A DNA stretch of 64,000 nt, taken from positions 649,041-713,040 of the forward strand of contig CP181398.1 of the NCBI GenBank assembly GCA_047946875.1. The letters run 5' to 3'. The stretch's first letter is position 1. The number at the start of each line of letters is the position of its first letter. A program made the translations under genes and the position numbers. This DNA is from Candidatus Kerfeldbacteria bacterium. Lineage in GTDB: Bacteria; Patescibacteriota; Patescibacteriia; UBA10025; JAHIVO01. Positions 2,447 to 12,700 of the stretch are shown here, in pieces. A model generated the notes under the pieces. That model worked only from the letters and a program-made list of their open reading frames with translations. It was not told where the DNA came from and did not search any database.

Positions 2447-2851
2447 TTATACTTTCCTAACTCTAGTTATCTGATTTAATATATTTTCAATTACTCCTTC
2501 TATATTATTATAAATATCATAATTAGTAAAACGTAAAAAATCTATACTAAACGTCTCAATAAACTCTTGGCGCTTTTTATCATTGATCTTAGCTTCTTTG
2601 GTTAAAAAATGCGTTGGACCATCCACCTCTATAACCAACCTTAACTCTGGACAATAGAAATCTACCACATATCCACCGATGCTGTACTGACGACGAAACT
2701 TAAAATCTCCGATCTGACGACCTTTCAAATACCGCCAAAGAATCAATTCAGCCTTCGGCGACTCACGTCGTAGTTTTTGACGACGCTCTTTCATACTCGT
2801 GCAATTATATAATCTTGTCATATGATGGATTGACCTCCCCTTAATAGACAT
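2447..2851 (-). CDS. DUF559 endonuclease-domain protein (Vsr-like fold)
   Basis: 134 aa; ELILWRYLKGRQ...FRRQ...GGYVVDFYCPELRLVIEVDG..H is the classic DUF559 signature. Confidence 0.8.
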   Translation of the reverse strand: MSIKGRSIHHMTRLYNCTSMKERRQKLRRESPKAELILWRYLKGRQIGDFKFRRQYSIGGYVVDFYCPELRLVIEVDGPTHFLTKEAKINDKKRQEFIETFSIDFLRFTNYDIYNNIEGVIENILNQITRVRKV

Positions 2852-3679: not shown

Positions 3680-4771
3680 TCATTTATCATACCTCCCTAT
3701 CTCCTCCTTTATTGTCCTAGCAACTACTTCCGGATCCTGCTTTTCATCGAAAAATATATTATGATAATGCGTATTATCTATCCCCAGCACCCTCAACACT
3801 TCCCATACTTTATTCTGTTGATCTTTGAATGCCTCAGGCAATACTACCAAATGAGTAATATCTAGATTCTCTTTCTTAATATAAGATGACGCATCAAGTG
3901 CCTCACATAACCACCGTCCATTAGTCGTACGCAGAGGTATCTCACCATAGGCAGGGTTCTCAGCATCGGGGTTAGTAAAATATATAGCCTCCCCTTTCCG
4001 CCTGATATTCCCATTAGCCTCCAACTGTTTAACTAGTTCCTCTGCCTCAATTATCTTCTCACTTTCTGAGATCAATAAATATTCCTTACCCTCGGTGGCA
4101 TCTTCTGACATTACCCCTTTTTCTTTTAACAAACCTTCTACACTTCTTTTAAAATTTTCTTTTACCCCATCTGACAGTTGCAACTGCGGAGCATCAAGTG
4201 GATCTCCTTTTTCAGTAGTTATTGCATGACCCTGTTCATCTGTCTGTATTTTTTTTGGCTTACCTAACAGATCCGTAGCATCAGGCATATCCGTATTATA
4301 TTCATCATAAAGAGATATCAACCTAGCCTTGGGGAATGATTCCGTTAATGTCTTCGCCACCTCTATCCCCACCTTATCCGTATCAGTCAGCTTATCCGAC
4401 CATATCTTACCACTAGATAGATCATAATCCGCCAAGTAAGGGCTAAATGACTCAAACTCCACCTTACGACCACTTCGATAATCTTCCAGGATTTCATTCA
4501 TTTGGCATAAGGAAAAATCCACGCCTTCACGCATGGCTTCTTTTGATGCTTCCTCTATTTCTTCATCCAATTTATATTTCAATTGCTTATCTCCAGCAGC
4601 TATACTAAAAGCACTTTTGAATTTATCTCTAATACCATTCAATATCTTTCTGATTTGCGAAGGACTTTTCTCCTCTTCTGTTTCAACTTCTGGAGAATCA
4701 TAAACCACCTCGGTCCTTTCAACCTCGTCGTTCCGCTCCACCTCTGGATTGTGCTTTAATGTTTCTGACAT
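3680..4771 (-). CDS. acidic hypothetical protein; probable third gene of the ATPase/DUF4276 operon
   Basis: 363 aa, Glu/Asp-rich N-terminus, no recognisable domain; starts 27 nt downstream of the DUF4276 stop on the same strand. Confidence 0.5.
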   Translation of the reverse strand: MSETLKHNPEVERNDEVERTEVVYDSPEVETEEEKSPSQIRKILNGIRDKFKSAFSIAAGDKQLKYKLDEEIEEASKEAMREGVDFSLCQMNEILEDYRSGRKVEFESFSPYLADYDLSSGKIWSDKLTDTDKVGIEVAKTLTESFPKARLISLYDEYNTDMPDATDLLGKPKKIQTDEQGHAITTEKGDPLDAPQLQLSDGVKENFKRSVEGLLKEKGVMSEDATEGKEYLLISESEKIIEAEELVKQLEANGNIRRKGEAIYFTNPDAENPAYGEIPLRTTNGRWLCEALDASSYIKKENLDITHLVVLPEAFKDQQNKVWEVLRVLGIDNTHYHNIFFDEKQDPEVVARTIKEEIGRYDK

Positions 4772-4797
4772 TTAATATTATAGTTATATTTCAATAT

Positions 4798-5490
4798 TTA
4801 TCTACTGACAAAAGAATCAACCTCTGTAATAAATTCATTTAAGCTATTAATCTTAGATTTAACAGATAAATACAATTCGCTATAATCTAATGCTTTGATA
4901 GTTCTTTTTATGCTATTTTCAGTCTTTGTATATCTTAATCCCACAATTTTATATATATCGTCTAAATCTATTGATGGATGACTTCTACTCTCTGGATTAT
5001 CTCTAAAAGGATCAAAATCAACACCAGTGCTTACAAGTGATTCTGTAAGAGAAGGATGAATTTTTCTATAATGACTTACCTCACCTAAAAACCATGCTTC
5101 CACTTCCATAATCGCTAGTACAATCTTTATTGGGATATATTTAGTTGGAACACGGGTAGATAGACCCATTTTTAAAGCTGGAATTTCAGCATGCGTAAAT
5201 GGATATACATCTCTTAACCCTATGATCCTATCGTAACCGCTTTCTGATAACTTTTCACAATGCTCAATAATGTCCGATTTAACACTTGAGTCTCCGCCAC
5301 AATCACGTATTAAAACATAATATTCCTTTTTAGGATTAATTGATTTTGCTTCAATTATTGTTAATAAATTTTTTTCAAATCTTTTTGTTTTAGATACTGT
5401 AATATTATTTTGACCAATAACTTCAATTAATAGCCTTTCTGAAAAAATTTGTTCTGTTTTACCCTCGACAAATATTGCTAACTTTTTCAT
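4798..5490 (-). CDS. DUF4276 family protein (Toprim-like)
   Basis: 230 aa; N-terminal KLAIFVEGKTEQIF plus IRDCGGD look like a Toprim Glu and DxD motif; 4-nt overlap with the upstream ATPase gene. Confidence 0.65.
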   Translation of the reverse strand: MKKLAIFVEGKTEQIFSERLLIEVIGQNNITVSKTKRFEKNLLTIIEAKSINPKKEYYVLIRDCGGDSSVKSDIIEHCEKLSESGYDRIIGLRDVYPFTHAEIPALKMGLSTRVPTKYIPIKIVLAIMEVEAWFLGEVSHYRKIHPSLTESLVSTGVDFDPFRDNPESRSHPSIDLDDIYKIVGLRYTKTENSIKRTIKALDYSELYLSVKSKINSLNEFITEVDSFVSR

Positions 5491-6629
5491 TTAATATTTT
5501 CATCTCTTAAATAAAAATTATTTGTAAAGAAATCAAAATTATTAAGTCCAGTATATTTAAATTCATCAAATAGCTTCTTAGAATTTTCATAATTAAGGAT
5601 ACTACATTTTCCTCCTACTCTATTAATAATAAGCCATAACTCAATTGGGATATCATTCATGACAAAGCGATCATTCGTAGTCATTATTAATTGAGCGGGT
5701 GAATCATCAATTTTTTTCATTAACAATTTAATAAGTGCTTGAGATCTCTCAAAATCTAATCCTTCACCAATATCATCAATGAGTATACAGGTAGGTGTTG
5801 ACTCTAAATGTGAGTAATTCAATTGAATAACCAATGACAAAGCTCTAAACATACCTTGAGAGATATCTTGTTGGTTTGTTATTCCTTCAAGATCTTTTTC
5901 CTTAACTGATAAACCCTTTGCCTCTATCTTCATCCCAAAATCAGATATAATTGGTATAGTTTCTAAAAAAATATTTTCTAATTGATAATTAATTTTCTTC
6001 ATATCCTTTCTGATTACATTTACAAATTTCTGACCATATTTTTTTTGACCTGCATCAAAAATATCAATTAGTCTGTTTATATTTTTTAAATTAATTTTTT
6101 CAATATTTTTATTTTGATTAATTCCTGAAACCTGATCTTTCCCCATTTGACTTCCAAATGGATAATAAAGAGTTTGCTTTCCCCATTTATATAGGTCATT
6201 AAAAAATGGGTGCTGAATTAAATCTTTCCTTACTACACAGGCTAATTCATTATTCGATACTTGAAAATCAATACTTTTTTTAAGTTGTACTGCAAATATT
6301 TTTCCTTTACCATTACCCTTTCTTTCTAGAAATTTCTTTTTATCTACTATGAATTCTTCTTTTAGTACTTTAGAATTTTTATATTTCAAAATATATTTAA
6401 CAATTTGTTTTCCATTCTCAAATTCAATTTCATAATTTCCTGAATTATATATTAATTTTTGATCACCAGAAACTAATGCAGCGAATGCATTTATAATATT
6501 TAATATTCTTGTTTTACCTGACGCATTTTTTCCAACAAGTAAATTTTTCTTACCAACGTTAAACTTTTTAACATGCCATGCTTTGGGCGTATTTTCAAAT
6601 TGACTATACTTGATTGATTTTAATATCAT
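5487..6629 (-). CDS. AAA_21/AAA_15-type ABC-like ATPase (OLD/PARIS AriA-like)
   Basis: 380 aa; Walker A GKNASGKT; C-terminal ILIDDIGEGLD Walker B/D-loop and TTND H-loop. Confidence 0.7.
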   Translation of the reverse strand: MILKSIKYSQFENTPKAWHVKKFNVGKKNLLVGKNASGKTRILNIINAFAALVSGDQKLIYNSGNYEIEFENGKQIVKYILKYKNSKVLKEEFIVDKKKFLERKGNGKGKIFAVQLKKSIDFQVSNNELACVVRKDLIQHPFFNDLYKWGKQTLYYPFGSQMGKDQVSGINQNKNIEKINLKNINRLIDIFDAGQKKYGQKFVNVIRKDMKKINYQLENIFLETIPIISDFGMKIEAKGLSVKEKDLEGITNQQDISQGMFRALSLVIQLNYSHLESTPTCILIDDIGEGLDFERSQALIKLLMKKIDDSPAQLIMTTNDRFVMNDIPIELWLIINRVGGKCSILNYENSKKLFDEFKYTGLNNFDFFTNNFYLRDENIK

Positions 6630-6674
6630 ATATTTATTTATTTACTAATCTAAATCTAATCCATTTTTAACTTT

Positions 6675-6700
6675 AAATCAACCCTGCCATTTACCCTCAC
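6675..6700. repeat. partial copy (A1) of the ~75-bp island repeat
   Basis: AAATCAACCCTGCCATTTACCCTCAC matches 25 of 26 nt with the start of repeats A2 and A3; lies about 45 nt upstream of the ATPase start. Confidence 0.7.
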
Positions 6701-6722
6701 AAATATCCCAGAATATCTTATT

Positions 6723-7829
6723 TTATTTTCCTGACTTAGTTCGATTATCCTGTTTACACAACATTTGACAATTTTTTGCTGTTGTTTTACCTCCTTCATG
6801 CCATGGATCAATGTGATCAGCTTCCATTTCAGAAATATCCCACTTCTGTTTCTTTTTGTTCTGCTTTTTGCAATCAGGACATACACCCTTTTGCCTCTCA
6901 TACGCTTCTCGCTTCATTTTATCGGTGAACGCGCGAATAGAAAGGTGCTTCTCCTGCCCTGTGAGTACATAAGGATAGATACCATATTTTTTTGTCACAT
7001 CCTCATCCTGCATCAATTTAGCAATTTCTGTTTCAAGTTTTTTTACACTTAATTTATTATCTTTGAATTGATTATATAGTTCTCCCCAATTCACGCTAAC
7101 CATTTCTTTACGATAATTTGTAAAAGTCTTTCGCACCCATTCAATCACATCTTGAAAATATCTCCACAACTCGTCAGCGTTTTTATCGTGTTGGTGTTTG
7201 GCCATGTAATCTTCTATCTTACCTTCGTTGATCCAGAAAAGTGCAGTTTCTAAATAATCTTGTCGTATTGGTGATCCACTTACCAAATGTCCTCCGTCAT
7301 TTGCTAAAAGATATGCTGCACAGTTTGATTTACTAAATTTCAATTTAGCATCACTTAACCATGGCCCCGTATAAACCGCATTGCGTAACTCTTGGTCGGT
7401 CAATTTTTCACCTGCAATATTAATAATCTTGAACCAATCAAGTCGCTCCCGATCTGTACCTTCGCACCAGTAAATCATAAGTTCATAATTCAAAATCTGA
7501 TCTTGTTCCTCATCTGTTAAATTATGAAAATACTTTTCATCTAGTGAAAAATCACCATTTACATATTGACCGATACTAATAGTACGCTGTTGACCATCGA
7601 GCATTTCGAAACCATCCTCATTCTTCAACCAATACATCACATTAAGTGGAAATTTTTGTTTGATGGATATTATAACTTCTTTACGTTGTTTGTCATTATA
7701 GACAAATTCGCGTTGATACTTAGGGCGAATATCGAGCTTGCCACCATATGCCACAACACCTTCTTCGGCGCTGTCTTTATAATCAGCGATTACTTCACGC
7801 ACAGAGATTCGATGTAGTTCAATTTTCAT
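6723..7829 (-). CDS. DUF262 (ParB-like DGQQR nuclease) with C-terminal HNH endonuclease domain
   Basis: 368 aa; DGQQR motif at about residue 80; C-terminus ADHIDPWHEGGKTTAKNCQMLCKQDNRTKS is an HNH motif with CxxC. Confidence 0.75.
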   Translation of the reverse strand: MKIELHRISVREVIADYKDSAEEGVVAYGGKLDIRPKYQREFVYNDKQRKEVIISIKQKFPLNVMYWLKNEDGFEMLDGQQRTISIGQYVNGDFSLDEKYFHNLTDEEQDQILNYELMIYWCEGTDRERLDWFKIINIAGEKLTDQELRNAVYTGPWLSDAKLKFSKSNCAAYLLANDGGHLVSGSPIRQDYLETALFWINEGKIEDYMAKHQHDKNADELWRYFQDVIEWVRKTFTNYRKEMVSVNWGELYNQFKDNKLSVKKLETEIAKLMQDEDVTKKYGIYPYVLTGQEKHLSIRAFTDKMKREAYERQKGVCPDCKKQNKKKQKWDISEMEADHIDPWHEGGKTTAKNCQMLCKQDNRTKSGK

Positions 7830-7830
7830 A

Positions 7831-8874
7831 CTATTTTTTTACTTTCTTATTTTTTATAATAATTCGTGCATAAGTAACATTAACAATACCATTTACAATC
7901 ATATATAAATCACCATCAACAGCACCTCTTTTTTGAATTTCCTTCCTATATTTTTTATGCTCTTCTTTGTATCGTTTAACTCCAATTTCTATTCCTGAAT
8001 TAGATATACCTAAACCAATAATCTCGAATTGTTTCGGATTATATTTATCGAGAAAAGTGATTGGCACACCCATATCACCGCCATAGTCATAAGGGATATC
8101 AGTGTATTTATTTACATTAATTGCGTTATAGTTTTCATATTTAGGATATTCCTCAGATTTATATTTTTTATAAAGTGTAATATTCTCTTTATGTTTATCA
8201 ACTTCTAAGTTAGTGAACCAACATGAAGTTGATACACGAGCAATTTTATTACCACTCTCATCAATATGATGAAACTTTTCCCAATCTTCTGGTACAATAA
8301 AAAACATACCAACATTAAAATTAGTGTAGCCAGTTCGAATTCTATCCTCCTTAAATAGTTTGAAAATTTCCTTATAAGTCATTGAATTAGTATTGCCAAT
8401 AATCAAAAACTTTTTATCATATTCTCTCAGCTGTGCAACATACTCGCGAAACAAAGAAAAGGGCGGATTAGTTACGACAATATCAGCCTCTTTGAGTAGA
8501 TCTATACACTCATCGCTACGAAAATCACCAGTGCCAATCATCTCGGTTATGAATTCTTCTGGATCAGGAATACGGTTGCCATTTTTATCACCAGTATATT
8601 CCAATTTATAAGGTTGTTCTTGGGTAAATAAGCTTGCTTCTTTGTAATGTGTAGCAATCAATTTTTTCAATCCTAAATGTTCAAAATTCATGCTGAAATA
8701 CTTGACGAAATTACTTTCTTTCGGATCATCGCAGTTACAAAAAACTACTTTGCCACGAAATTGATCTTTATAATGTTTTAGCTCTTTTTCAATATCAGAG
8801 AGTTGAGTGTAAAATTCGTCTTTCTTTTCTTTGCTTGCTTTGTGCAAATTTTTATTTGAAGATTTTTTTTTCAT
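7831..8874 (-). CDS. EcoRI-family N6-adenine DNA methyltransferase
   Basis: 347 aa; N-terminal KNLHKASKEKKDEFYTQLSDIEKEL...VVFCNCDDP and DIVVTNPPFSLFREY closely parallel M.EcoRI as I recall it. Confidence 0.75.
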   Translation of the reverse strand: MKKKSSNKNLHKASKEKKDEFYTQLSDIEKELKHYKDQFRGKVVFCNCDDPKESNFVKYFSMNFEHLGLKKLIATHYKEASLFTQEQPYKLEYTGDKNGNRIPDPEEFITEMIGTGDFRSDECIDLLKEADIVVTNPPFSLFREYVAQLREYDKKFLIIGNTNSMTYKEIFKLFKEDRIRTGYTNFNVGMFFIVPEDWEKFHHIDESGNKIARVSTSCWFTNLEVDKHKENITLYKKYKSEEYPKYENYNAINVNKYTDIPYDYGGDMGVPITFLDKYNPKQFEIIGLGISNSGIEIGVKRYKEEHKKYRKEIQKRGAVDGDLYMIVNGIVNVTYARIIIKNKKVKK

Positions 8875-8900
8875 AAATTAATATTCCAACTTTTTTATTT

Positions 8901-8980
8901 AAAATCAACCCTGCCATTTATCCTCACCCCCCACACACCAATTTCACCTATAAACTATGGGGTAACCTTGTTTTTAATCC
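8901..8980. repeat. island repeat copy A2 (~80 bp)
   Basis: Near-identical to A3 (9186-9260) over about 70 bp; sits about 20 nt upstream of the methyltransferase start. Confidence 0.8.
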
Positions 8981-9064
8981 ATAATACACTTTTGAAAATA
9001 ACTTTAAGTTTTTCTCTCTTTTTCGAGCATCTTTTTCGGAAGAATAAGCTTCATAATAATATAT

Positions 9065-9169
9065 TTATGGTGAAAATAAAATTACAGCCATAACCACTAC
9101 AAAAATAATTACAAATAATACTATTCTTTTACCTGTACCACCAATCCAAAATTTATTATATTTTTCCAT
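9065..9169 (-). CDS. 34-aa single-TM peptide (MEKYNKFWIGGTGKRIVLFVIIFVVVMAVILFSP)
   Basis: Hand-translated; a repeat copy (A3) lies immediately upstream, as for the neighbouring genes; below the ORF-track length cutoff. Confidence 0.3.
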   Translation of the reverse strand: MEKYNKFWIGGTGKRIVLFVIIFVVVMAVILFSP

Positions 9170-9185
9170 ATTAGATAAATTTTAA

Positions 9186-9260
9186 TTACCCCTGCCATTT
9201 ATCCTCACCCCCACATACCAATTTCACCTATAAACTATAAGGTAACCTTGTTTTTAAACA
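9186..9260. repeat. island repeat copy A3 (~75 bp)
   Basis: CCCCTGCCATTTATCCTCACCCCCACA(C/T)ACCAATTTCACCTATAAACTAT..GGTAACCTTGTTTTTAA shared with A2; overlaps the 3' end of the RhuM ORF. Confidence 0.8.
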
Positions 9261-9680
9261 CCAATTCTCTAAACACCTTTTTAAATGAAAACTTTTATTA
9301 ATAATGTAGCCATCAATCATATGCTGTTTTAATACCTTTGTCGCCCAAATACGAAATTGCGTAGCGTGTTTAGAATTAACGCGATAACCTACAGAAATAA
9401 TTGCATCAAGATTATATAAATTAACATCACGCTCTATATATCGTTTTCCTTCTTTTTGAACTATCCGGAAATTCCGGATAGTTGCTTTATCTGTTAATTC
9501 ACCTGTTCTATAAATATTTTTTAAATGCTCATTAATCGTACGTACATCTACATCGAAAACTTCAGCGATCTGCTTTTGAGATGCCCAAATAGTCTCTAGA
9601 TTAAAATCTCCACGAAATTCAATTGCTCCAGTTTTAGCCTGGTAAATAACAATATTTTTAATAGATTTATTTTTATTCAT
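9228..9680 (-). pseudogene. 3'-truncated RhuM-family (virulence/Fic-associated) gene
   Basis: 150 aa versus about 330 aa for the family; homology (IVIYQ..G.IEF...ETIWASQKQIAEVF...QFRIWATKVLKQHMIDGY) ends where repeat A3 begins; the last ~24 residues are read from sequence in and next to the repeat. Confidence 0.6.
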
Positions 9681-9744
9681 ATTATGTTAAAATGGTCTTT
9701 TAATTTTTAGTTCTTCATAATAACTAACCAAATTGATGTTAGGG

Positions 9745-12700
9745 CTAACCTTCCCACTTGTCTTCGCAGATTTCTTTAAAATCACAGGTCTTACACCAGA
9801 AGCCTGGATTTGCCTTAAAATCACTCTTCCTTATTTCCAAGATCTTATCTACTAATTTATCTTTCAATTTATCAAGTTCAGAATCCTTAGCAGTAAATGA
9901 GATCGGTTGATTTGCATTAACATAAAGATAAGTTAACTTAGCTGGTTTTAGTTTAAGAATATCCTTAGCAGCTAATGCATAGATCATCAACTGTTCTTTC
10001 TCATCCACTGACAACTTACCATTTTTTGGAACTTTACCAGTTTTGTAATCTATAATTTCTACTCCAGCGGAGCTGGACCCCGGTTTGCGGGGATCATTTC
10101 CATTAACATCACCAATTGGGTCTACTCTATCTATGACCCCTTTGAATGTATGTTCACCTAGTTTCAAATGAAATGGTTGTTCTAAGAATAATGGTACTGG
10201 AAAATCACCAGCTAATGAATCGTAATACATCTTCAATGACTCTCGACCCTGTTCATAATATTCTTCTTTATGCTGAACTGACAAATACCAATCCTCTATC
10301 CACTCTTGCTCATACAGTCCCATTAGTTCATCAAAACCAATTTTGACTTGGCCTTTGGCTGATCGATCTTGTACCATTTTGAAAAACTTAAATAAGGTAT
10401 TGTGAATTGTCTTACCATAACTAAACATATGCTTACCTTCTACTGGTATACGTAATAGATGTGCGTATTTGAATTGCTTAGGACAATTTTTGAAAGCCCG
10501 AAGTTGAGTATAGCTTGATTTCTCTGGAATTACTTTTCGTAAGTAATCTAACTCTTTAATTTTCTCTTGTTTAACATTATCGGTAGCTTTGAGTCTTTCT
10601 GTCTTATCTACCTCCCCTGTCCCTTTCTTCACTTCGAAACCAGTCTCGATCAAAAATCTGGATGGTTTTTTCTTGCGAGAGCCACCGTAATCATCTGCGG
10701 AAGTAAAATATAATCCCTCCTTAGCTCTGGTCATCGCTACATAGAATAATCGTCTCTCCTCCTGCAAATGAATATCCCCTTCTGGGATAATTTCTTTTAC
10801 CAATTCATCAGGTAGTTCAATCGGCTCTTTTCTTTCTATGGTTGGGAATCTTTTATCAACCAAATTTACTATAAATACATTTTTGAATTCCAATCCCTTA
10901 GCGCCATGAATAGTCATGATCTTAACTGCATCAGGCCCTTCATCCCAAGTTTGATTCATCGATCCAGATTCCCCTGCATCCTGAGATTGCTCAAATTCAT
11001 AAAGAAAATTCTTAACTGACTTATCATCATTAACTGCTTCAAAATCCTCTATCTTCCTGAAGAACTGATTAAGATGAATTATGCGTTCCATATTTTCTGG
11101 ACTATCTTTTGCAGTGATCTCTTTGAAATATCCAGAATCTTTCATAAATCTTAGAGCTACTGATAGTACATTTTTATCTCTAGTTAGCTGGGTATGCTTC
11201 TCTATCATGCCTAAGATTTTCTCAATGACATGATGTCCGCTTGATGAAATGCCAGGAATCCCTCTAACTTGTCCCATTGCTTCAAATAATGACATACGCT
11301 TCATAGCTGCATAACGTGATATAGACATCAGATAATCAGTTGGCAATTTAAACTGCTTAAAATTGAGCACTCTCCACATAGCAGCGCTCTCATGATAGTT
11401 ATCCAACATTTTCATATAGGCTACGATATCCATAATCTCTGGTTGACCATACAAACCTTTGGATGCCAAAAACTGATGCGGTATGTCTAGACGTGATAAT
11501 GAATTTATAAACTCCGCAGCGTATGAATTTGCCCTGATCAGGATAGCAAAATCACTCCATAATAATTTTCCGGCAGAGCCGGATCCCGCTTTGCGGGGCT
11601 TATTTCCAGTTTTCAGTTCTAATATTTTCTTAGTAACTCCACTTGCTTCGTCTAAATACGAATTGAAATGTAGATGCCGAATAACACCATCTTTACCAAT
11701 AGCTGATTTTAGCTTCTTACTTATTTTATTCTTTAGTGGAGCGCCCTTGGGATCTATCTTCCCTTTGGTCAGCTGATACTCAAGACGATTTGGGTCATTC
11801 TGTTTAATAAATTTATATGACAAATCTAGGATATTTTGTTTGGTACGATAATTGTCAGTTAGCACAATCTCATCAGACTCAGGAAAATCTTTTTTAAATT
11901 CCAAAATATTACTAATAGCAGCACCACGAAATTTATAGACAGATTGGTCATCATCCCCTACTACTGTAAGATTATTTTTTGGAGCAGATAATAATTTGAT
12001 TAATTCATACTGTGCGTAATTAGTATCTTGAAACTCGTCTACCAATATGTATTTGAACTGTTCTTGATATTTCTTTAATATTTTTGGACGCGTCTTGAAT
12101 AGCTTAATGGTATAAAGTATCAGATCACCGAAGTCCATGGCACTATTTTCTAACAGCAACTGCTGATAAACCTTGTAAGCATTAGCTACTTCCTGAACTC
12201 TTTTGTCTTCTGAAATTTCTTCGTCAACATCATCCTGACTACTATCTGGCTTTAGCTTATTAGCATATTCAATATATTCATCAGGTAATATGTTCTCATC
12301 TTTGGCTCGAGAAAAATGCCTAACTAAGGCTTGAACAAACTTGGTTGGATTACCTAAAGGACGATAGTAATCAAGATCAAATTTATCAAAATTCTTTTGA
12401 ATTAATAGAACTTGGTCTGTAACACTCAATAATTTAAAGTCAGGCGGTAAGCCAATCTCCAAGGCATTATCTTTCAATATTCTTTCACAAAAAGCATGAA
12501 AGGTAGATACCCAAAGATCAACATATCCCATTGGTAATAATACATCTATCCTCTCTTCCATCTCAGCCGCTGCTTTCTCTGTAAAAGTCAGAGCTAATAG
12601 ATGGTCAGTGTTTATCTTCTTCTCTAATATTAACCAAGCTATTCTCTCTGTAATCACGGTTGTTTTGCCAGTACCCGCTCCTGCTACAATTAGCAAAGGA

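Follow-up and report, generated by a model that had tools for sequence, protein, structure and literature searches.

The subject of this work is a putative restriction-modification (RM) cassette in a 64,000-nucleotide stretch of DNA, hereafter the window, from contig CP181398.1 of a Candidatus Kerfeldbacteria genome (assembly GCA_047946875.1, positions 649,041 to 713,040). It comprises two genes on the minus strand, an upstream methyltransferase gene related to that of the EcoRI system and, 1 nt downstream on the same strand, a gene for a nuclease in which an N-terminal DUF262 domain is joined to a C-terminal HNH domain. Both open reading frames (ORFs) were found at the coordinates given in a first-pass annotation, which had been prepared from the sequence alone. 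The gap of 2 nt stated there has to be corrected to 1 nt, as only one T lies between the stop codon TAG and the start codon ATG. The features of the cassette, in window positions, are:

7831..8874, minus strand: EcoRI-family (gamma-class) N6-adenine DNA methyltransferase, 347 amino acids (aa); ORF, Pfam EcoRI_methylase, PADLOC MTase_II and alignment with M.EcoRI.
8458..8469, minus strand: NPPF catalytic motif IV of the methyltransferase (aa 136-139), within DIVVTNPPFSLFREY; read from the sequence, with the same block in the M.EcoRI alignment.
7829..7833, minus strand: methylase-nuclease junction, stop TAG, one base T, start ATG; sequence AAAAAAATAG-T-ATGAAAATT.
6723..7829, minus strand: nuclease of the type DUF262 (ParB/Srx-like)-helical-HNH, 368 aa, putative restriction component; ORF, Pfam GmrSD_N and HNH, PADLOC REase_II and AlphaFold2 model.
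7350..7829, minus strand: N-terminal DUF262/ParB-Srx-like putative nucleoside triphosphate (NTP)-binding domain of the nuclease, aa 1-160; YQRE at 7707-7718, DGQQR at 7584-7598.
6930..7349, minus strand: all-helical middle region of the nuclease, aa 161-300; helices of the AlphaFold2 model and invariant residues.
6726..6929, minus strand: zinc-finger HNH nuclease domain, aa 301-368; CPDC at 6870-6881, catalytic DH at 6813-6818, N353 and CQMLC at 6756-6770, N362.

The one-base spacer suggests that the two genes are co-transcribed, and for the same reason translation of the nuclease is probably coupled to that of the methylase.

The methyltransferase is a clear member of the M.EcoRI family, as had been proposed. 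The Pfam profile EcoRI_methylase (PF13651) covers it fully (profile positions 1-345 of 345, E value 3.3e-126, 421.7 bits vs a cut-off of 26.4), and the PADLOC Type II methylase model MTase_II (PDLC03297) matches it with an E value of 8.7e-114. A BLASTP comparison with the true M.EcoRI, represented by the E. coli plasmid gene which adjoins 'type-2 restriction enzyme EcoRI', revealed 48% identity along the complete sequence (E 5e-103); a poor alignment in a real search, the possibility that the first-pass annotation had raised against its own assignment, was thus not observed. The three M.EcoRI-like peptides quoted there are all present, namely KDEFYTQLSDIEKEL (aa 18-32), VVFCNCDDP (aa 43-51) and DIVVTNPPFSLFREY (aa 131-145), the last of which includes the NPPF block that is invariant across the family.

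The nuclease, in contrast to the methylase, has no counterpart in the EcoRI system. The Pfam scan yielded GmrSD_N/DUF262 (aa 34-153, E 1.4e-14) and HNH PF01844 (aa 317-366, E 1.7e-10) only and no R.EcoRI-like family, in agreement with the earlier description of a protein that is not R.EcoRI-like and carries a DGQQR domain (DGQQR at aa 78-82) followed by a C-terminal HNH motif. The PADLOC model PDLC03418 'Type II restriction enzyme' (REase_II) matches the complete protein (residues 1-368, profile positions 1-372 of 372, E 7.5e-128). A sequence search of solved structures returned only a marginal match to the HNH domain of McrA, and the nearest solved folds are those of BrxU, SspE and DndI, with matched BrxU and SspE chains of 560-580 residues. 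The AlphaFold2 model of the nuclease is confident (mean predicted local distance difference test score (pLDDT) 84.3, predicted template modelling score (pTM) 0.62) and has an alpha/beta domain at the N-terminus, helices in the middle and a beta-beta-alpha module at the C-terminus. A protein identical to this nuclease is recorded in a Candidatus Kerfeldbacteria metagenome-assembled genome.

Invariant residues were derived from an alignment of the window nuclease with one group of about 80% and one of about 40% identity. They comprise the DUF262 signature residues P36, Y38, Q39, R40, E75 and D78-G-Q-Q-R82, aromatic and charged residues of the middle region including R189, Q190, W199, Y208, W231, W248 and D275, and the HNH and Cys4 zinc set C317, C320, D338, H339, N353, C354, C358 and N362. 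The catalytic motifs of both proteins are intact. On the basis of the model and of its invariant residues, the middle region of the nuclease may be regarded as a candidate DNA-binding or site-reading domain.

The nuclease is related to the DUF262 sensor-nuclease enzymes but more compact. Its architecture had been described as one usually seen in Type IV enzymes, and this holds only in part: an N-terminal DUF262 domain with DGQQR is indeed common to GmrSD-type enzymes such as GmrSD and BrxU, but those carry DUF1524, whereas the domain scan gave no DUF1524 match in the window nuclease, whose C-terminus is a PF01844 zinc-finger HNH domain with a Cys4 zinc site. The matched BrxU chain has 580 residues compared to 368, and reviews treat the GmrSD and BrxU systems as single-gene systems attacking modified cytosines, while the present nuclease family is always paired with an adenine methylase. 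Membership in the GmrSD family was considered and rejected because of the lack of DUF1524, a size far below that of the BrxU and SspE chains, and the constant linkage to a methylase.

The pairing itself had been called unusual and a possible new RM architecture. Neither claim is supported, and for this nuclease family the pairing turned out to be the rule. When one genome per species was scanned, at least 560 proteins closely related to the nuclease were found, and the neighbourhoods were read in the best 80 loci. An EcoRI-family methylase lies upstream on the same strand in 76 of them and the other four have less than 1 kb of upstream sequence, so that all informative loci (76/76) contain the pair; a stop codon followed by 1 nt is the commonest spacing. 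A third gene conserved with the pair was not found in these neighbourhoods, the best neighbour cluster being present in 7 of 76 loci. Plasmid-encoded homologues only 38-61% identical to the nuclease still directly follow an 'adenine-specific methyltransferase EcoRI family protein', in hosts which span Bacillota, Pseudomonadota, Actinomycetota and Bacteroidota and include Macrococcoides, Ligilactobacillus, Enterococcus, Aeromonas, Variovorax, Gordonia and Chryseobacterium. The linkage is strict and ancient, and the first-pass proposal to look for such pairs elsewhere was answered by the related loci, the plasmids of four phyla and also by phages (see below). In this sample, the partners of EcoRI-family methylases outside Enterobacteriaceae are mostly DUF262-HNH proteins, while R.EcoRI occurs only on Enterobacteriaceae plasmids.

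At E <= 1e-30, a search with the nuclease of 1.84 billion representative proteins retrieved 466 clusters at the 50% identity level; almost all are 360-410 aa long and share the same end-to-end architecture. Two of the cluster representatives are single ORFs joining both partners: P0383 (688 aa) contains EcoRI_methylase, GmrSD_N and HNH, and P0509 (515 aa, a fragment) EcoRI_methylase and GmrSD_N. These may be real fusions, or else read-through, sequencing or assembly artefacts across the 1-nt spacer, and we give them little weight.

These observations bear on the view of the nuclease as a modification-dependent (Type IV) enzyme that stands next to an unrelated or antagonistic methyltransferase as a result of defence-island clustering. 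The DUF262 domain shared with GmrSD-family Type IV enzymes would agree with it, as would a weak PADLOC mREase_IV match (E 0.0027) restricted to the HNH region and the location in a defence island, where an ATPase-DUF4276 pair and a RhuM remnant adjoin the cassette. Yet the two genes are on the same strand in every informative locus, usually with a 1-nt gap, over a range of 38-100% identity, which nearly excludes an accidental neighbourhood. Furthermore, fused methylase-nuclease ORFs exist, DUF1524 is missing, no further neighbour gene is conserved with the pair, and a nuclease dependent on N6-methyladenine (m6A) would, if co-transcribed with the methylase that makes this mark, turn on the DNA of its own host. 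We consider this explanation highly improbable. The second possibility suggested for the pair, a methylase that shields against a modification-sensing nuclease, is conceivable, but nothing in the present analysis points to it.

The cassette has spread widely by horizontal transfer. Nucleases 75-83% identical were found in lineages as distant as Patescibacteria, Omnitrophota, Bacteroidota, Gammaproteobacteria and one bin labelled archaeal, and serine recombinases are among the commonest neighbours of related cassettes. Both observations, together with the occurrence of the cassette on small plasmids and in phages, would also be expected of a mainly selfish mobile addiction module, with the HNH nuclease acting in a homing or post-segregational-killing-like manner, the methylase as its antidote and phage defence as a secondary effect. 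Such behaviour is compatible with RM, as many Type II systems behave alike; no target-site or homing signature was found, however, and the cassette stands among other defence genes, so that we regard a mainly selfish role as unlikely.

Among the phage copies, Flavobacterium phage vB_FspS_laban6-1 (1778-4140 of locus L091) encodes the complete cassette of a PF13651 methylase and a DUF262-HNH nuclease. It is a moron-like insert whose orientation is the reverse of that of the neighbouring tail and structural genes. In the mycobacteriophages Hami1, Marchy and Norz the match is confined to the first 43 residues of the nuclease, adjoining an annotated methyltransferase. For Hami1, the mycobacteriophage in which the methylase was compared and the ORFs were annotated (1425-2653 of locus L092), an EcoRI-family methylase 52% identical to that of the window is followed by a 50-aa ORF that contains the 43-residue match at 67% identity. 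Judged from these sequences, the Hami1 methylase looks like an orphan derived from the cassette. Decay of an RM module usually leaves the methylase, which is harmless alone and protective, and the nuclease stump of Hami1 fits such a decay to an orphan self-protecting methylase.

The two proteins of the cassette are conserved to a different extent. When 69 close loci (from the range L006-L085) were compared with the window, 98% of locus pairs resembled each other more closely in the nuclease than in the methylase. Mean pairwise identity amounts to 80.7% for nucleases vs 61.8% for methylases, figures in which nuclease divergence is bounded since the loci were chosen by nuclease similarity. Despite this selection the spread of the methylases is real: where two nucleases are more than 88% identical, their partner methylases share from 53% to 96% identity, and the distance matrices of nuclease and methylase correlate weakly (Mantel r 0.29, p 0.001). 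The usual RM pattern is the opposite, with the methylase better conserved than the nuclease. The methylase spread implies either exchange of methylase partners at equal specificity or a much tighter constraint on the nuclease.

A conserved nuclease beside methylases 45-96% identical would be easier to understand if it reads a generic mark rather than a sequence, and this is one argument for mark sensing of the SspE type. Here the DUF262 domain would read the m6A of self DNA and tune an NTPase and an HNH nickase. Unmarked invader DNA would then be nicked or cleaved with little regard to sequence, and methylation would act as a licence or allosteric signal and not as a simple block at each site. 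In line with this, the nearest solved folds (BrxU, SspE and DndI) all belong to DUF262 enzymes that sense DNA modification, and reviews call DUF262 the modification- or DNA-sensing NTPase module. Against such a mode, the nuclease has only 368 aa compared to the 560-580 residues of the matched SspE and BrxU chains and a classical PF01844 HNH instead of DUF1524, and the Hami1 methylase beside its 50-aa nuclease stump fits simple methylation protection. The known systems differ further: in SspABCD-SspE and with DndI the mark is a phosphorothioate made by a multi-gene pathway and sensed by SspE, whereas here it would be m6A from a single Type II-style methylase, with a much smaller effector. We therefore think SspE-type sensing unlikely.

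The junction between methylase and nuclease is an insertion hot spot. Unrelated cargo of 0.35-1.9 kb separates the two genes in about 14 of 76 loci, and it encodes RhuM-family and GIY-YIG/T5orf172-like proteins, a Bro-N-like and a DUF2130-like protein, an AAA ATPase and small membrane proteins. A full-length RhuM gene lies between methylase and nuclease in L050, L053 and L071. In L069 the 0.35-kb gap is occupied by a shorter RhuM match of about 70 residues. Tight translational coupling of the two proteins is, in view of this cargo, not essential.

Loci with cargo at the junction: L010, L022, L032, L035, L038, L050, L053, L055, L069, L071, L072, L081 and L085.

We interpret the locus as an intact two-gene, Type II-like RM cassette, with a methylase that marks the DNA of the host and an HNH nuclease directed against unmarked DNA, and assign to this interpretation a probability of about 0.75. 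It is the best supported one because of the linkage of the two genes, the apparent decay to an orphan methylase in Hami1, the intact catalytic residues and the family label given by PADLOC. As PADLOC holds models for both proteins, standard defence annotation would also file the cassette as RM; the PADLOC reference list cites REBASE, presumably the source of its RM models.

According to the mechanism we propose, the M.EcoRI-family methyltransferase would mark host DNA at its target, most likely GAATTC. The ParB/Srx-like DUF262 domain and the helical middle region of the nuclease would bind DNA and probably a nucleotide, and would permit cleavage only at sites without the methyl mark; the cut itself would be made by the C-terminal Cys4-zinc HNH domain. 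Analogy with known DUF262 enzymes suggests that a nucleotide bound by the invariant DGQQR pocket may gate cleavage, and nucleotide-gated cleavage was reported for GmrSD, BrxU and SspE. One can speculate further, though we hold this only as a tentative possibility, that the nuclease acts as a small ParB-like nucleotide-gated switch or clamp which reads the m6A state at the target of the methylase and then releases the HNH domain. If so, the conservation of the nuclease above that of freely exchanged methylases would reflect a demanding multi-state mechanism.

The assignment of GAATTC as the leading candidate relies on three lines of comparison. The partner methylases share 43-59% identity with M.EcoRI and 45-96% with one another; M.EcoRI nests within the partner-methylase neighbour-joining tree, a midpoint-rooted distance tree, beside two methylases with DUF262-HNH partners; and REBASE predicts GAATTC, by similarity, for EcoRI-like methylases. 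From these similarities GAATTC is the most likely target of the methylase, although they make weak evidence. We also attempted to derive site specificity from conserved columns in the C-terminal, target-recognition part of the methylases and rejected this approach, as the columns do not separate subgroups: M.EcoRI shares 31 of 35, and members with other partners or none do likewise.

Several points weigh against the RM interpretation or its proposed target. The literature searched contains no biochemical or methylome evidence for the cassette family. Every characterised DUF262 enzyme found (GmrSD, BrxU and SspE) senses modified and not unmodified DNA, which makes the methylation-blocked mode of cleavage an assumption. 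The seeds of PDLC03418 may be characterised or merely predicted REBASE entries. Blow et al. detected no methylation in two strains whose EcoRI-like methylases were predicted to modify GAATTC, these being methylases that may or may not adjoin a DUF262-HNH nuclease. Finally, GAATTC is not clearly avoided. The window contains 19 sites, including two within the methylase gene, at an observed/expected ratio of 0.80, which bears out the earlier remark that the site is not obviously depleted and present at least six times. In 1.25 Mb of DNA pooled from the 80 host loci the ratio is 0.82, 15th of the 64 hexamer palindromes. No palindrome stands out in an avoidance test of the window and the pooled flanks, and GAATTC is mildly low.

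Compared with the EcoRI system, the cassette likewise has two genes, one for a methylase and one for a nuclease, and its methyltransferase belongs to the same Pfam family with 48% identity over the full length, including the NPPF block and most of the conserved C-terminal positions. R.EcoRI, however, is a PD-(D/E)XK enzyme unrelated to the DUF262-HNH nuclease of the window, and the order of the genes is reversed, the nuclease preceding the methylase on E. coli plasmids. With the HNH Type II enzymes KpnI, NlaIII, SphI, Hpy99I and PacI the cassette shares an HNH/beta-beta-alpha-metal cutting module and a separate methylase; unlike here, the 2008 classification and fold census describes no HNH family on its list as having a ParB/DUF262 domain. 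Type II enzymes do not typically contain a nucleotide-binding domain, and a ParB/Srx domain of this kind within a Type II-style restriction enzyme would be mechanistically interesting. Should the nuclease be the nucleotide-gated switch speculated on above, the cassette would represent a Type II-like system, sensitive to methylation and dependent on NTP, that connects orthodox RM with the GmrSD, BrxU and SspE sensors. With GAATTC as its site, the nuclease would be an EcoRI isoschizomer of wholly different fold, probably with another cut geometry, and, if its cut does differ from that of EcoRI, possibly a new reagent enzyme.

The cassette thus belongs to a very large, horizontally mobile family that is already filed under Type II RM and whose nuclease appears to be uncharacterised in the literature searched. 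The search, which extended to publications and not to REBASE, brought up no description of an EcoRI-type methylase with a DUF262-HNH nuclease as its partner, and recent accounts of DUF262 defence proteins name GmrSD, SspE, PD-T4-2, Dazbog and Menshen without a DUF262-HNH nuclease. The family is abundant in Patescibacteria, which have very small genomes, and shows where such organisms invest in defence.

The surroundings of the cassette form a small defence island with the following features:

9228..9680, minus strand: RhuM-family remnant upstream of the methylase, corresponding to residues 22-140 of homologues of about 330 aa; the C-terminal half is missing.
5487..6629, minus strand: AAA_21/ABC-type ATPase, 93 nt downstream of the nuclease; PADLOC AbiLi (E 4e-21), AriA, mad3 and HEC-01A.
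4798..5490, minus strand: DUF4276 Toprim protein, PADLOC HEC-01B; overlaps the ATPase gene by 4 nt.
3680-4771, minus strand: 363-aa acidic ORF, 26 nt downstream of the DUF4276 gene.
2447-2851, minus strand: DUF559 (Vsr-like/MTES_1575) endonuclease-fold protein, 134 aa; Pfam E 1.2e-30.

The ATPase and the DUF4276 protein look like an independent defence pair related to OLD, PARIS and HEC-01. We treat them as a module separate from the RM cassette because none of the 80 related loci contains the pair, and we ascribe the neighbourhood to chance. The 363-aa ORF gave no match in Pfam, NCBIfam, PADLOC or PHROG and has no relative in the 80 loci.

The presence of a DUF262 protein near an ATPase and a DUF4276 protein recalls Menshen. 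The DUF262 part of the nuclease is similar to NsnA (PADLOC E 6.7e-25, aa 30-157) and to PD-T4-2_A (E 2.5e-10). NsnA, unlike the nuclease, is without HNH and works with NsnB and NsnC, and its match covers the DUF262 part only. The Menshen paper describes NsnA (DUF262 and a ParB DNA-binding domain), the ATPase-DUF3696 protein NsnB and the effector NsnC as conserved together, and lists among the effector domains DUF4276, which it equates with Mad4. Neither the ATPase/DUF4276 pair nor the 363-aa ORF downstream of the nuclease occurs in the 80 related loci, however, and a Menshen-like or MADS-like four-gene system was therefore rejected.

A scan for promoters and terminators around the cassette gave matches no more frequent than in shuffled sequence. 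The sole terminator-like match in positions 4600-9800 is a perfect 11-bp inverted repeat, AACTATCCGGA-AAT-TCCGGATAGTT, at 9459-9483 within the RhuM remnant. All large ORFs in the first 13 kb of the window are located on the minus strand, and GC skew on the plus strand is persistently negative, with a cumulative value of -11 over the 64 kb; both are consistent with a strong strand bias of one replichore.

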